From: Escherichia coli
Lineage (GTDB): Bacteria > Pseudomonadota > Gammaproteobacteria > Enterobacterales > Enterobacteriaceae
DNA length: 64,000 nucleotides
Assembly (NCBI RefSeq): GCF_044324875.1
Contig: NZ_CP172185.1
Reading direction: 5' to 3' (one strand)
Shown piece by piece: positions 3,714-64,000 of the stretch. The position numbers and the translations under genes are program-made. The notes under the pieces are model-generated. The model made no database searches. It saw only the letters and a list, made by a program, of their open reading frames with translations, and had not been told where the DNA came from. Position 1 is the first letter of the stretch. Each line of letters begins with the position of its first letter.

Positions 3714-3789
3714 TTGGTGCCCGGAGGCGGAATCGAACCACCGACACGGGGATTTTCAATCCCCTGCTCTACCGACTGAGCTATCCGGG
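3714..3789 (-). tRNA. pheV: tRNA-Phe (GAA anticodon), 76 nt including CCA
   Basis: Reverse complement is GCCCGGATAGCTCAGTCGGTAGAGCAGGGGATTGAAAATCCCCGTGTCGGTGGTTCGATTCCGCCTCCGGGCACCA. Matches E. coli tRNA-Phe except for the T-stem (see findings). Confidence 0.9.
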
Positions 3790-3895
3790 CAACGGGGCGC
3801 ATTAAACCTGATTCGCCTCGTCTCGTCAATCAAATTTCTTCAATTTACTGCAGACTGCACAATCTATCATCACTTTGCCGCTAATGCACGCATTG

Positions 3896-44171: not shown

Positions 44172-44881
44172 AAATTGAATTAACGGTGAATGGTCTGAAG
44201 GTACAAGCACAGTACCATGTTGATGAGATAGAAAATGTACATAAACCGTTGCTGCGCATGTTGGCGGCCTTACAGACGGTAAATCCGCAGCGGCGTACGG
44301 TGGTTTTTCTTTGCGCTCCGCCGGGGACGGGTAAATCTACCCTAACCACCTTCTGGGAATATCTCGCGCAACAAGACCCGGAACTACCCGCTATACAGAC
44401 GCTGCCGATGGATGGTTTTCACCATTACAATAGCTGGCTGGATGCGCATCAATTGCGCCCCTTCAAAGGCGCACCAGAGACATTCAATGTAGCGAAACTG
44501 GCGGAAAACCTGCGCCAGGTCGTGGAAGGGGATTGTACGTGGCCACAGTACGATCGACAAAAGCATGATCCTGTTGAAGATGCGTTGCACGTTACCGCAC
44601 CACTCGTCATCGTCGAAGGAAACTGGTTGTTACTGGATGATGAAAAGTGGCAGGAGTTGGCATCTTTCTGCGATTTTTCTATTTTTATTCATGCACCTGC
44701 TCAAATTCTGCGGGAGCGCTTGATTAGTCGTAAAATTGCGGGAGGATTATCGCGGCAAGAAGCCGAAGCTTTTTATGCCCGAACCGATGGTCCCAATGTC
44801 GAGCGTGTGCTGGTGAATAGTCGTCAGGCCAATCTGATAGTAGAGATGACCGAAGAAGGCAGATATCACTTCAAAAGCTGA
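44168..44881 (+). CDS. yggC: P-loop kinase-like protein YggC
   Basis: GTG start; Walker A PPGTGKST; matches YggC. Confidence 0.9.
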   Translation: MKIELTVNGLKVQAQYHVDEIENVHKPLLRMLAALQTVNPQRRTVVFLCAPPGTGKSTLTTFWEYLAQQDPELPAIQTLPMDGFHHYNSWLDAHQLRPFKGAPETFNVAKLAENLRQVVEGDCTWPQYDRQKHDPVEDALHVTAPLVIVEGNWLLLDDEKWQELASFCDFSIFIHAPAQILRERLISRKIAGGLSRQEAEAFYARTDGPNVERVLVNSRQANLIVEMTEEGRYHFKS

Positions 44882-45165
44882 CAATTTATTCCAGTTATTG
44901 CAGGGGTATTATTACGCCAGCCTGGAATAAAGCCCCCTACAAAAGGGGATAAAAGTGTGATGTAAGTCAGATAAATGTCTTCTTCGGCTGGACAATCATT
45001 CCTTTTATTCCACGTTTCGCTTATCCTAGCTGAAGCGTTTCAGTCGATTAAATGTTCGACAATTAACCAATCAGTCGCAGTTTGCGACAGGTAAGGTTTC
45101 CCCGGACGATTTGCTGGATTACTCTGTCTGGCAAATTTGCTCAGGGAAAACCTTGCAGGAGATCT

Positions 45166-47461: not shown

Positions 47462-47586
47462 ATACTCTAAATAATTCGAGTTGCAGGAAGGCGACAAGAG
47501 AGTGAATCCCATGAGCTTACATAAGTAAGTGACTGAGGTGAGCGAACGCAGACGCAGCACATGCAACTTGAAGTATGACGAGTATA
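47462..47586 (+). repeat. ERIC (IRU) repetitive element, copy 1, pgk–fbaA spacer
   Basis: Contains the ERIC core GTGAATCCC..GAGCTTACATAAGTAAGTGACTG.GGTGAGCG; near-identical to the inverted copy at 60520-60648. Confidence 0.7.
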
Positions 47587-48756: not shown

Positions 48757-48857
48757 GCCTGATGCGCTACGCTTATCAGGCCTACACGTATCCTGCAATA
48801 TATTGAATTCGCAGGTTTTTGTAGGCCGGATAAGGCGTTCACGCCGCATCCGGCATG
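48757..48857. repeat. REP/BIME cluster
   Basis: GCCTGATGCGCTACGCTTATCAGGCCTACA and GTAGGCCGGATAAGGCGTTCACGCCGCATCCGGCA units. Confidence 0.6.
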
Positions 48858-49966: not shown

Positions 49967-51010
49967 TTAACGCATTGTTTCATCGAGTATATTGGCAACT
50001 TTTTGCATGACTTCCCCGGCTTTCTCCACGCCTTCCTTATTTTGCTTTTCTACCCACTGTGCTTGTTCTTGCTGATAACCGATCGCTTTCTGCCAGGCGT
50101 CCAGCCCTGATTTTTTCAGATAGCGAACCTGTGCACCTTCCTGCTCAAGCGTTTTTACCATGCTGATCAGGTTGTTATCTAATGCCTTGCCCAGTGCTTT
50201 CTCGGTTGTAATGGCAGCTCGTTGAATAGCCTCACGATCTCTGTTATCAAGGTTTTCCCACGATTGTTTATTCATTACCAACAGATAAACATGACCAAGC
50301 CAGAGAGAAGGTGAGAGCAACACATTCGGCGCAGCACGTTCAGCATGGATGTCATATCCGCTATCGAGATTGACCATTAAACCATCCAGTTTTCCATCCA
50401 TGAGTGCTTTAGTTATTTGATCATTCCACGGTAAAGTTACGGTTTTTGCCCCCGTATGAGTTAAATAAGCCCGATGCCAGAAACTGGCTGTTCGCCAGGT
50501 GGTTCCCTGAAGCGCAGTCAATTTATCAATGGGCCTGGTAGAGAAAAAGCCTACCGGGTAGCCAAGGAAAAACTGTAAATTCACGATATTGTTACGCTCA
50601 AGTTCAGCGTTAAATTCGGGAATTTCCGCATATACGCGACGAAAGAATTCTACCTGACTGGCTCCATGATCCGGGCCAATAGCAAAGCTCTTGAAGATTT
50701 GATGAAGCGGCAATTGTTTCGCGGTGTATTCCGGCACCACTATACCCATATCAGCTTTGCTGCCATCGCTTATTGTCGTCAGAGCGTCATAGCTGATGGC
50801 GGTTTCACCGTTCCAGTGTGGTTCGATTTTCAAACGCCCCTGCGACTCTTTTTCAATTTCTGCAAAAAATATCTCTTTAATTATTTGTGTACGCATTCCC
50901 CCGTAGGGTTCATGGTCTGTATAACGAAGAATTTTTTCAGCAGCAAAAATCGAGGGAGATAACAGAAGAAATCCTGATAAAAGAAAGGGGAGTAATTGTC
51001 GGTAGTGCAT
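49967..51010 (-). CDS. Orphan periplasmic solute-binding protein, DctP (TRAP) family, 347 aa
   Basis: Signal peptide; aligns by eye with the dctP-like protein at 17494-18480 (WRTAS vs GTRSF, LMDGKLDG vs QQGVVDG, LVMNKQSWENL vs LVISTKTWNKL). No permease genes adjacent. Confidence 0.7.
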   Translation of the reverse strand: MHYRQLLPFLLSGFLLLSPSIFAAEKILRYTDHEPYGGMRTQIIKEIFFAEIEKESQGRLKIEPHWNGETAISYDALTTISDGSKADMGIVVPEYTAKQLPLHQIFKSFAIGPDHGASQVEFFRRVYAEIPEFNAELERNNIVNLQFFLGYPVGFFSTRPIDKLTALQGTTWRTASFWHRAYLTHTGAKTVTLPWNDQITKALMDGKLDGLMVNLDSGYDIHAERAAPNVLLSPSLWLGHVYLLVMNKQSWENLDNRDREAIQRAAITTEKALGKALDNNLISMVKTLEQEGAQVRYLKKSGLDAWQKAIGYQQEQAQWVEKQNKEGVEKAGEVMQKVANILDETMR

Positions 51011-51125
51011 ATCTGTTCCTTCAGTTTATTAATTCAACTTATACTATATTAATTTTATCAATTATCCCTAATGTTATTCCTGCGCTATAGTCTGCGCATC
51101 AGATAATTAGCCCGGAATTAATTAC

Positions 51126-51760
51126 GTGATATCTTATTACTTTCAAGGTCTTGCACTTGGGGCGGCTATGATCCTACCGCTCGGTCCACAAAATGCTTTT
51201 GTGATGAATCAGGGCATACGTCGTCAGTACCACATTATGATTGCCTTACTTTGTGCTATCAGCGATTTGGTCCTGATTTGCGCCGGGATTTTTGGTGGCA
51301 GTGCGTTATTGATGCAGTCGCCGTGGTTGCTGGCGCTGGTCACCTGGGGCGGCGTAGCCTTCTTGCTGTGGTATGGTTTTGGCGCTTTTAAAACAGCATG
51401 AGCAGTAATATTGAGTTAGCCAGCGCCGAAGTCATGAAGCAAGGCAGATGGAAAATTATCGCCACCATGTTGGCAGTGACCTGGCTGAATCCGCATGTTT
51501 ACCTCGATACTTTTGTTGTTCTGGGCAGCCTTGGCGGGCAACTTGATGTGGAACCAAAACGTTGGTTTGCGCTCGGGACAATTAGCGCTTCTTTCCTGTG
51601 GTTCTTTGGTCTGGCTCTTCTCGCTGCCTGGCTGGCACCGCGTCTGCGCACGGCAAAAGCACAGCGCATTATCAATCTGGTTGTGGGATGTGTTATGTGG
51701 TTTATTGCCTTGCAGCTGGCGAGAGACGGTATTGCTCATGCACAAGCCTTGTTCAGTTAG
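51126..51760 (+). pseudogene. argO: Arginine exporter ArgO (LysE family), disrupted by a 1-bp frameshift at about 51397
   Basis: Two overlapping ORFs (91 aa ending ..GFGAFKTA, then [12 protein letters not shown].. of 120 aa) together reconstitute 211-aa ArgO; junction reads GCATGAGC where GCAATGAGC would keep the frame. Confidence 0.7.
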
Positions 51761-52760: not shown

Positions 52761-53657
52761 ATGGACATTTTTATTTCGAAAAAGATGCGCAATTTCATTT
52801 TATTAGCGCAAACCAATAATATTGCCCGGGCGGCAGAAAAAATCCATATGACGGCTTCGCCATTTGGCAAAAGCATTGCCGCGCTGGAAGAACAAATTGG
52901 CTATACGCTATTTACCCGCAAAGATAATAATATCAGCCTCAATAAAGCCGGGCAGGAACTGTATCAAAAACTGTTCCCGGTTTATCAACGACTTTCTGCG
53001 ATTGATAATGAAATCCATAACTCAGGACGTCGTTCACGAGAAATTGTGATAGGCATAGATAATACTTATCCGACCATTATTTTTGATCAGTTGATTAGTC
53101 TCGGAGATAAGTACGAAGGCGTGACCGCCCAGCCAGTTGAGTTCAGCGAAAACGGCGTTATCGATAATCTTTTTGACCGTCAGTTAGATTTTATTATCTC
53201 CCCACAGCATGTATCTGCACGAGTTCAGGAACTGGAAAATCTGACTATCAGTGAACTACCACCGCTGCGATTGGGCTTTCTCGTTTCTCGCCGTTATGAA
53301 GAGCGTCAAGAGCAAGAGCTGCTTCAGGAGCTGCCCTGGCTACAAATGCGCTTTCAGAACCGGGCCAACTTCGAAGCAATGATTGATGCGAATATGCGAC
53401 CTTGTGGGATCAATCCAACCATTATTTATCGTCCCTACAGTTTTATGGCCAAAATCAGCGCCGTGGAGCGCGGACATTTTCTGACGGTGATCCCGCATTT
53501 TGCCTGGCGACTGGTGAATCCGGCAACGCTGAAATATTTTGATGCACCGCACAGGCCGATGTATATGCAGGAATATCTTTATTCAATCAGAAATCATCGT
53601 TATACCGCCACGATGCTTCAGCATATTGCTGAAGATCGTGACGGGACGAGTCATTAA
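52761..53657 (+). CDS. ygfI: LysR-family transcriptional regulator YgfI
   Basis: 298-aa ORF with N-terminal HTH (NNIARAAEKIHMTASPFGKSI). Confidence 0.9.
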   Translation: MDIFISKKMRNFILLAQTNNIARAAEKIHMTASPFGKSIAALEEQIGYTLFTRKDNNISLNKAGQELYQKLFPVYQRLSAIDNEIHNSGRRSREIVIGIDNTYPTIIFDQLISLGDKYEGVTAQPVEFSENGVIDNLFDRQLDFIISPQHVSARVQELENLTISELPPLRLGFLVSRRYEERQEQELLQELPWLQMRFQNRANFEAMIDANMRPCGINPTIIYRPYSFMAKISAVERGHFLTVIPHFAWRLVNPATLKYFDAPHRPMYMQEYLYSIRNHRYTATMLQHIAEDRDGTSH

Positions 53658-55132
53658 CCCAGCATCGAGCCGGTTGCAATTAAATTACGGTGTAAATCGA
53701 AGACGTGGCTAAGATCGTGGTGAATATGTCCGCCGGGCGCATTTTCCAGATAGCGATGCAGATAATCCCGATACATAGGATGTGCACAATTATCAATGAT
53801 AGTGCGGGCGCGTTGAAGCGGGGAAAGACCACGCAGATCGGCGATCCCTTGTTCGGTGATGATCACTTTGACGCTGTGTTCGCTGTGATCAACATGGCTG
53901 CACATTGGCACGACGGTTGAGATCTTGCCTTCTTTAGCAATCGACGGGGCCATAAAGATCGACAGATACGCGTTGCGTTCAAAATCGCCGCTGCCACCGA
54001 TGCCGTTCATCAGATCGACCCCGGCTACGTGCGTTGAGTTGGCATGCCCGTAAATATCAAACTCCAGGCCGACGTTCAGAGCGATGACGCCCAGACGACG
54101 GATGATTTCCGGGTTATTGGAAATCTCCTGCGGACGCAACACAATGCGGCTGGCAAAGTAATCCATATTGTCGTAAATCTTGCGCAGGGAATCGGCCGAG
54201 ATAGTCAGGCTGGAGGCGCTGGCCCCGCTGATTTTGCCCGTTTCCAGTAAATGCACCACCGATTCCTGTAGCACTTCCGAATACATCATAAACGGAGGAA
54301 TTTCCGGATTTTCCCCCAGACGCGCCATTACCGCATTATTGATGTTGCCCACGCCACTTTGCAGCGGCAGAAATTCCGGCGGAATACGCCCATGCGCCAT
54401 TTCCTGCAACAAGAACGTGACCACGTTATCGGCAATCTGCTGGCACATGGGATTTTGCTTATCCAGCATATTACCGGCGTCGGGCAAGTTGGTTTCCACG
54501 ACGGCGACAATCTTTTTCGGATCGATTTGCACATAGCGGGTACCGACGCGATCCATTGCATGGAAGATCGACACGCTATTGCGCCGCGGTGGCGCGCCAG
54601 GAATCACAATATCTGCCAGTTCTGCAACGCGCGGATCGTGATAGTGATTGAGTTCAATGATCACTTTCTTCGCCCGCAGCAGCCAGGTCGGCGCATTACC
54701 GATCCCGCTGGTTAACCAGACTCGACCATCCGGTGCCAGTGCCGATGCTTCAATGACGGCAACATCAATTTCGCCGAAGAAACCGTAATTGACCATTTGC
54801 GCCACTTCGCTCAAATGCAGGTCAACGAAACTCACCGCGCCCTGATTGATCTTTTTACGTAAACCGGACGATGTTTGATATGGCGCACGCTAGGAAACAG
54901 CATCGGCGTCAGAAAGTACATCGTCAGCGGCGGCGCTGATTGACGCCCCCGTCAGCAGGCGAATTTGATACGGCTTTTTGGCCTCATGCTGTTCGTTAGC
55001 TCTGCGGGCAATCGCGGTGGGTAAGGCTTTCGGCGAACCCGCTGGGGTAAAGCCGCTAAATGCCACCATGTCGTTATGCTGGATAATTTCTGCCGCTTCA
55101 TCGGCGGTCATCCTTGTCCACTGAGTTTCCAT
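53654..55132 (-). pseudogene. scpC: Propionyl-CoA:succinate CoA-transferase ScpC (YgfH), interrupted by an in-frame TAG at 54890-54892
   Basis: 80 codons (METQWTRMTADEAAEII...DADAVS), then TAG, then the same frame continues RAPYQTSSGLRKKINQGAVSFVDLHL... for another 411 codons to the natural stop. Confidence 0.7.
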
Positions 55133-59286: not shown

Positions 59287-60180
59287 TTAATCCTGACGAA
59301 GGACTTTGTGACCATAATCGAGCAACGCATCAGTGACTTTACGCATCATGCGGCTTTCAGGAGCAAAGCGGTGCCAGTAGAGCATCCGGCGTTGAAATAG
59401 CCCTGGCGTTAAGTCAATCAGTTCACCGCTGGCCAGTTCTTTCTCGATTTGCAGGTGCGGGATCATACAGCAGGTGGTGCCCTGGCGAGCAAGTTGCACG
59501 AACGCTTCTGAAGAATTAACGATATGGCACGGTACGCTGCCTGGGGGCAGATCGAAGTTTTGCTGCAAAAAGGCCTGGTGCATATCGTCAAGATGGTCAA
59601 AGGCGACCACAGGTGCTTTCAGTAATGCCGAACGCGTTACGCCGTTAGGGAAATATTTTTCGGCAAACGGTTTTGAGCTGACGAACAGATAGTCGAGCGC
59701 ACCGAGCTTATCGACAAGACAGCTCGGCAGCGCCTGATGTTGAATACTCACCGCGCCGACCACTTCGCCGCGGCGCAGGCGTTCCTGAGTGCGGGTTTCA
59801 TCTTCTACCTGCAAGTTGAGGCGGATAGGCGAATCAGCCAATACAGGAGCCAGCGCCGGAAGCAACCACGTCGCCAGACTGTCGGCGTTGACCGCCAGTG
59901 AAAGCAGCAGCGGAGTCGAACCGGTTTGTTCATCGCCCAGCCACTCTTCTTCCAGCAACTCCACCTGGCGCAGCAGTGCCAGCAGTTTTTGCCCTTGTTC
60001 TGTCGGGCGCGGTGGTACGGTACGCACCAACAGCGGCTGCCCGAACATATTTTCCAGTTGCTTAATGCGTTGTGAGACGGCTGATTGTGTAATGCACAGC
60101 TTTTGTGCCGCGCGCTCAAATCCTCGTTCACGTATCACCGCATCCAGTGCCTGTAATGTTCTGTAGTCCGGGCGTTTCAT
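59287..60180 (-). CDS. argP: LysR-family regulator ArgP (IciA)
   Basis: Translation from [28 protein letters not shown] matches ArgP (297 aa). Confidence 0.9.
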
Positions 60181-60519: not shown

Positions 60520-60648
60520 TATATACTCGTCATACTTCAAGTTGCATGTGCTGCGTCTGCGTTCGCTCACCCCAGTCACTTACTTCTGTAAGCTCCTGGG
60601 GATTCACTCTCTTGTCGCCTTCCTGCAACTCGAATTATTTAGAGTATA
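60520..60648 (-). repeat. ERIC (IRU) repetitive element, copy 2, inverted relative to copy 1
   Basis: Reverse complement is near-identical to 47462-47586; lies immediately upstream of rpiA. Confidence 0.7.
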
Positions 60649-62989: not shown

Positions 62990-63140
62990 ACGATGGCAGG
63001 GCAGCATGGTGCTGTAACGGTAAAGCCCTCACCGAAGCGAGGGCTTGAAGGAGAAGGGTTATGATGCGACTTGTCATCATACTGATTGTACTGTTACTCA
63101 TAAGTTTCCCAGCTTATTAACAGTCAGTCTCAGGGGAGGA
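62990..63140 (-). ncRNA. sibC: Antisense antitoxin sRNA SibC (approximate boundaries)
   Basis: Inferred from the ibsC position and the known antisense arrangement; ends not determinable by eye. Confidence 0.35.
63061..63120 (+). CDS. ibsC: Type I toxin small hydrophobic peptide IbsC (19 aa)
   Basis: MMRLVIILIVLLLISFPAY with RBS GGAG upstream, in the serA–ygfA spacer where the sibC/ibsC locus lies in E. coli. Confidence 0.6.
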   Translation: MMRLVIILIVLLLISFPAY

Positions 63141-63220
63141 GTCATCCTCCCTTACCCTTACTCACTAAATTAGGTTAAAGAATCAACGATGTCAATCAGG
63201 GCGATGCAGGTGTGTCGCCC

Positions 63221-63841: not shown

Positions 63842-64000
63842 AGGGAATCTCCGAGATGCCGCCGCAGGCTGTAACCCTTGAACCCTTGGTTCAAGGTGAA
63901 TGTGTCGTCGCAGTTTTAAGGCTTCTCGGACGGACCGAGCATGCTCACCAACCGCGGAGCGCCACATTCTTGTGGTATGAAATATCGGCTCAGGGGACTG
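63842..64000 (-). ncRNA. ssrS: 6S RNA, 3' 159 nt (5' end beyond the window)
   Basis: Reverse complement matches the 6S RNA sequence ...CAGUCCCCUGAGCCGAUAUUUCAUACCACAAGAAUGUGGCGCUCCGCGGUUGGUGAGCAUGCUCGG...GGAGAUUCCCU; directly upstream of ygfA as in E. coli. Confidence 0.8.

Follow-up and report, generated by a model that had tools for sequence, protein, structure and literature searches.

A one-base deletion shared by a clonal Escherichia coli lineage probably makes the arginine exporter gene argO a pseudogene

In E. coli K-12, ArgO (YggA; LysE family, TC 2.A.75) is encoded by a 211-codon gene at the mscS-argO-yggE locus, with argP nearby. The stretch of E. coli DNA analysed here (64,000 nt of contig NZ_CP172185.1, assembly GCF_044324875.1; hereafter the window) has the same locus, with argO present as two partly overlapping ORFs of 91 and 120 codons. 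The locus therefore raises the question of whether these ORFs are the remains of a gene broken by mutation, an intact gene misread in sequencing or assembly, or a gene that still yields an exporter, be it in two pieces or by restoration of its frame. The features referred to below are listed in Table 1.

Table 1. Position and nature of features in the window.
Feature	Coordinates	Strand	Remarks
tRNA	3718..3790	-	Rfam, gathering score
ES036/CssrF sRNA	48778..48820	-	fbaA-mscS spacer; Rfam, gathering score
Gene for orphan TRAP-type DctP-like substrate-binding protein	49967..51010	-	347 aa; between mscS and argO
argO upstream (regulatory) spacer	51011..51125	+	DctP-linked haplotype; same in strains with intact argO
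argO 5' fragment	51126..51401	+	Begins at the native GTG; codons 1-91 with three hydrophobic segments; profile matches and hydropathy
Deletion site	51398..51398	+	Lone A remaining from ancestral AA of GCA ATG, codon 91/92 junction
argO 3' fragment	51398..51760	+	120 aa, ATG start; native codons Met92-Ser211 open
argP, LysR-type activator gene	59290..60180	-	Intact, 297 aa, 99.7% identity to reference
Sib antitoxin RNA	63045..63195	-	Rfam, gathering score; adjoins Ibs toxin position in reference
6S RNA	63844..64000	-	Cut by window end; Rfam, gathering score

The NCBIfam ArgO model NF006801 was matched by the 91-aa ORF at positions 1-91 of 211 (E 2.3e-55) and by the 120-aa ORF at positions 92-211 of 211 (E 4.6e-68). 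Together the two pieces hence cover the model over its whole length and represent a single gene severed once, not a chance pair of ORFs; the conserved position (mscS ... argO-yggE) and the presence of argP are likewise those of the ArgO family. The uninterrupted coding sequence of ~211 codons that the family requires is lacking in the window, and the pieces on their own score 187.4 and 228.9 bits, short of the 298 bits set as the cut-off of NF006801. The Pfam LysE domain (PF01810) is also divided, with positions 2-81 in the 5' piece and 90-192 in the 3' piece, and the joined pieces match it at positions 2-192 with 187.6 bits. Hydropathy, from which the segment layout was taken, gave six hydrophobic segments for ArgO, with a hydrophilic loop at approximately residues 88-110 separating two three-segment halves. 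The PF01810 domain, the six segments and the central hydrophilic loop are as in Corynebacterium glutamicum LysE and the LysE superfamily but, unlike in these, the two repeats lie on separate ORFs in the window. No solved structure matching ArgO by sequence was detected.

Positions 51390-51403 of the window read AAAACAGCATGAGC (51386-51406, TTTTAAAACAGCATGAGCAGT). The two ORFs overlap in the four nucleotides ATGA (51398..51401), in which A51398 both completes the Ala91 codon (GCA) and opens that of Met92 (ATG), and the stop codon of the 5' ORF is the TGA at 51399..51401, put in frame by the deletion. Since this TGA follows Ala91 immediately, the truncated product would carry no frameshifted tail residues.

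Alignment to intact argO genes revealed one 1-nt gap at this site and no further indel in the gene. Compared to K-12-type argO, the window gene has F2I (4T>A, 6T>A), seven synonymous substitutions and 274delA, and nothing more; the missing A corresponds to K-12 argO nucleotides 273/274, and its absence breaks the frame with no in-frame read-through. At the protein level the C-terminal 120 residues are identical to those of K-12 ArgO and the N-terminal 91 differ only by F2I. K-12-type alleles read GCAATGAGC at the site, and three strains of the haplotype with the DctP-like gene read GCGATGAGC. The 91-aa and 120-aa pieces, when joined, give exactly a protein that is encoded uninterrupted on 29 public contigs (P0033, e.g. 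HAM9649939.1), with the same gene order and the GTG ATA start, and all ten DNA copies retrieved for this exact repaired protein have GCAATG, within GCAATGAGC. Intact argO genes with F2I (P0033, WP_104858344.1 and WP_000626875.1) are, in contrast to that of the window, uninterrupted, with GCAATG or GCGATG, and their backgrounds are ~1% diverged from it. A 65-nt probe spanning the site had zero exact matches among 5419 complete RefSeq E. coli genomes, its top matches there being 65/66 to K-12-type alleles with one extra base. Across the 8.7 kb aligned, the only other indels were three in the pgk-fbaA spacer, none of them in coding sequence. Loss of one A of GCA ATG is, on these alignments, the most economical reconstruction of the lesion. 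The first-pass annotation of this DNA had described argO as split into a 91-aa and a 120-aa ORF with a 4-nt overlap and had ascribed the split to loss of one A from GCAATGAGC; the ORF coordinates and the model positions agree with the former, the GCAATG of all intact alleles of the same protein and the single 1-nt gap with the latter, and the alignment to reference argO that it had proposed as a check gave just this gap.

The same annotation had suspected, from the first codons (GTG ATA TCT), an N-terminus unlike that of K-12, and rightly so: the protein begins MISYYF, compared to MFSYYF in K-12. MISYYF is also found in the intact, annotated ArgO proteins WP_104858344.1, WP_000626875.1 and P0033, of strains with the DctP-like gene upstream, and F2I is hence a natural feature of this haplotype and not damage. 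The DctP-like gene, divergent from argO, marks the F2I haplotype but plays no part in the lesion, and K-12-type strains are without it. The window also differs from K-12 in having the upstream spacer of the DctP-linked haplotype. Over the ~78 bp between ~51048 and the start codon, this spacer is homologous to the K-12 spacer but ~25% diverged, and the divergence extends through codon 2. A simple sigma-70 scan upstream of argO gave no promoter on the plus strand, a scan that is uninformative for an activator-dependent promoter.

A genome that truly reads GCAATG, with argO intact, would give the same picture if the window contained a sequencing or assembly error, which the first-pass annotation had put forward as an alternative of the homopolymer type. 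Single-base indels are the commonest type of assembly error, and zero complete RefSeq E. coli genomes in the collection carry the deletion. Compared with 5426 such genomes using 751-nt, 1.5-kb and two 25-kb pieces, the window had a best identity of only 98.6-98.9%; the lineage is thus not represented in the complete-genome collection, and the absence of the deletion there carries no weight and is silent on the rarity of the allele. The site, moreover, is a mere AA dinucleotide and no error hotspot, and thousands of assemblies with identical flanks retain both As. All 22 neighbouring genes in the last 25 kb of the window align over their full length without gaps, which indicates that the window assembly is not error-prone.

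Against an error speaks also the recurrence of the identical deletion in all nine independent data sets inspected at the DNA level, namely five NCBI assemblies (GCA_002467655.1, GCA_958308375.1, GCA_049991865.1, GCA_044162285.1 and GCA_044693565.1) and the Logan assemblies of four unrelated SRA runs (SRR31121697, SRR31121307, SRR21141798 and ERR3328720), which are 99.98-100% identical to the window with scattered SNPs. GCA_002467655.1 (NMMD01000008.1) is identical to the window over 12.3 kb and GCA_958308375.1 over the stretch compared, and each Logan assembly departs from the window at one or two further sites in 8.6 kb. The other three NCBI assemblies, traced through the unusual yggC allele of the lineage, share the deletion at 99.99-100% identity to the window across 15-20 kb; their records list no product in the interval from dctP to yggE, which would follow if argO had been annotated there as a pseudogene. 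Contigs on record with the exact 91-aa product number 52, and those with the yggC allele 102, one of them of 5.75 Mb. An error in the window, including one of the homopolymer type, is thus highly improbable; as read from these independent isolates and read sets, the deletion is real, inherited and common to the whole clonal lineage.

Altogether, we estimate a probability of about 0.88 that a one-base deletion arose once in the ancestor of this clonal lineage and has been inherited since, leaving argO a pseudogene. Following the loss of one A of GCA ATG in that ancestor, ribosomes starting at the native GTG must stop at the TGA directly after Ala91, and only the N-terminal half, with three of the six hydrophobic segments of a LysE-family exporter, would be released. 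Translation ending there would yield no full-length ArgO, and the 91-residue fragment, with half of the segments, is presumably incapable of acting as a complete LysE-type exporter. Judged by its reading frames, the locus is argO by descent without encoding an ArgO protein. ArgP is the activator of argO, and loss of ArgO in K-12 leads to canavanine hypersensitivity, according to the passages of PMC8498466 that cite Nandineni & Gowrishankar (2004). With no full-length ArgO, diminished arginine export and canavanine hypersensitivity are to be expected, and the lineage most likely lacks ArgP/arginine-induced arginine export and is hypersensitive to canavanine.

Because the window gene differs from that of K-12 only by F2I and synonymous changes besides the deletion, and argP is intact, the loss is probably recent and struck a gene formerly under purifying selection. 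Four samples compared across 8.6 kb showed six within-lineage variants, two of which, both non-synonymous, fall in the 363-nt 3' half of argO, numbers that are small. One, Q139L (51540 A>T), is present in 29 Logan contigs and GCA_044693565.1, which form one sublineage, and the other, A208G, in one contig. All intact orthologs aligned (from E. coli, Klebsiella and Leclercia, and one IMG sequence) retain Q139, and A208 is variable. These changes hint at drift after inactivation, with a signal of relaxed constraint that consists of two SNPs only.

The place of the break is nevertheless one at which the protein might tolerate being cut. LysE-superfamily proteins have a 3+3 repeat architecture in which a large hydrophilic region separates TMS3 from TMS4 (PMC4608589). 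In the window the cut lies within the central hydrophilic loop, exactly between the three-helix repeats, and both halves are otherwise undamaged, the first without an aberrant tail and the second beginning at the native Met92. For some secondary transporters, LacY among them, the halves of a split protein are able to complement one another. Both halves of ArgO could then be made, the second by termination-reinitiation at ATGA, and assemble into a two-piece exporter. A stop-start overlap of this kind can support termination-reinitiation, but there is no Shine-Dalgarno sequence before the second ORF, whose pairing energy is -1.5 kcal/mol, when the starts of argO itself and of yggE reach -3.5 and -6.6, respectively; the overlap is present, and an initiation signal proper to the second cistron is lacking. 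The restart codon, moreover, seems an accident of the allele, since Met92 is unconserved: Klebsiella orthologs have Phe at this position. Q139L, which alters a conserved residue, and A208G, with no accompanying synonymous changes, resemble drift and not the upkeep of a working half. Nor is the split kept across diverged taxa: it is confined to one near-clonal lineage, and every other ortholog examined, from E. coli, Klebsiella and Leclercia, is a single gene. A two-piece exporter is hence improbable, though it would be of interest if true, as a natural fission reversing the ancestral 3+3 duplication that would provide new information on LysE-family architecture.

Full-length ArgO might also be restored in some cells through +1 frameshifting, transcriptional slippage or slipped-strand mutation. 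Like +1 sites of the prfB type, the frameshift coincides with a stop codon (GCA TGA), but re-pairing from GCA to CAU would be non-cognate and no upstream Shine-Dalgarno stimulator is present. Similarly, TTTTAAAA lies 5 nt upstream of the frameshift but outside the slippery X_XXY_YYZ register for the 0 frame. As for phase variation, an AA dinucleotide is far too short, and all lineage members examined are in the same state. The chance that recoding or phase variation rescues the gene is accordingly minute, and a pseudogene is the reading we retain.

Public assemblies contain other, independent argO lesions: W74* (221G>A; SRR9203232 and SRR30359030), 224delG (SRR29176785) and 227insG (complete genome AP027807.1), as well as a double deletion (SRR915717). 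W74*, 224delG and 227insG lie in the first half of argO, at sites that differ from that of the window deletion, and leave the same 120-aa 3' ORF; their independent occurrence indicates that argO is dispensable and has been lost repeatedly. The backgrounds of these other lesions (loci L007-L011) match K-12 at 1863-1865 of 1866 bases, lesion included, and their carriers may be laboratory derivatives. Two further candidates (loci L004 and L006) were rejected as plain assembly noise, with many broken neighbours. A literature search for a described argO pseudogene returned only Argonaute papers or irrelevant matches.

The argO case is an ordinary lineage-specific frameshift pseudogene, an event of a kind already known, and of little general significance as one more such pseudogene in a dispensable E. 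coli gene. For annotation, the 91-aa and 120-aa ORFs should be entered as one broken argO rather than a pair of LysE-family genes; in some public records the pieces appear as separate proteins (SRB13925.1 and SRB13927.1). The predicted canavanine hypersensitivity or export defect could matter for studies of arginine physiology and for the use of these strains as hosts. Together with a nonsense mutation in scpC (W81*), the argO deletion provides a handy clonal marker of the lineage.

The scpC gene (propionyl-CoA:succinate CoA transferase; 53654..55132, minus strand) has TGG>TAG at codon 81, with the stop at 54890..54892, which leaves ORFs of 80 and 393 aa and is common to all loci of the lineage. 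The 80-aa fragment is found on 192 contigs, more than the argO deletion, and W81* may be older than the latter, or recurrent. In SRR31121307 (locus L015), an extra C in srsR at the position matching window 52812 shortens the called product to 269 aa, and is either a further frameshift private to this lineage member or a fault of the run's assembly. The yggC allele of the window is unusually diverged, with 88.5% amino acid identity to that of strain E200086, and the yggC-epd spacer (~44881..45082) is without the ~3.1-kb ECF-transporter cluster (two ATPases, T and S components and a PPC-domain protein) present there in E200086. Finally, an element of ~126 nt, which we take to resemble an ERIC/IRU repeat, occurs in two copies in inverted orientation, in the pgk-fbaA spacer (47462..47586) and the argP-rpiA spacer (60522..60647); the copies are complementary over 49 nt at 100% and 79 nt at 96%, and flank a 13-kb block that includes argO.
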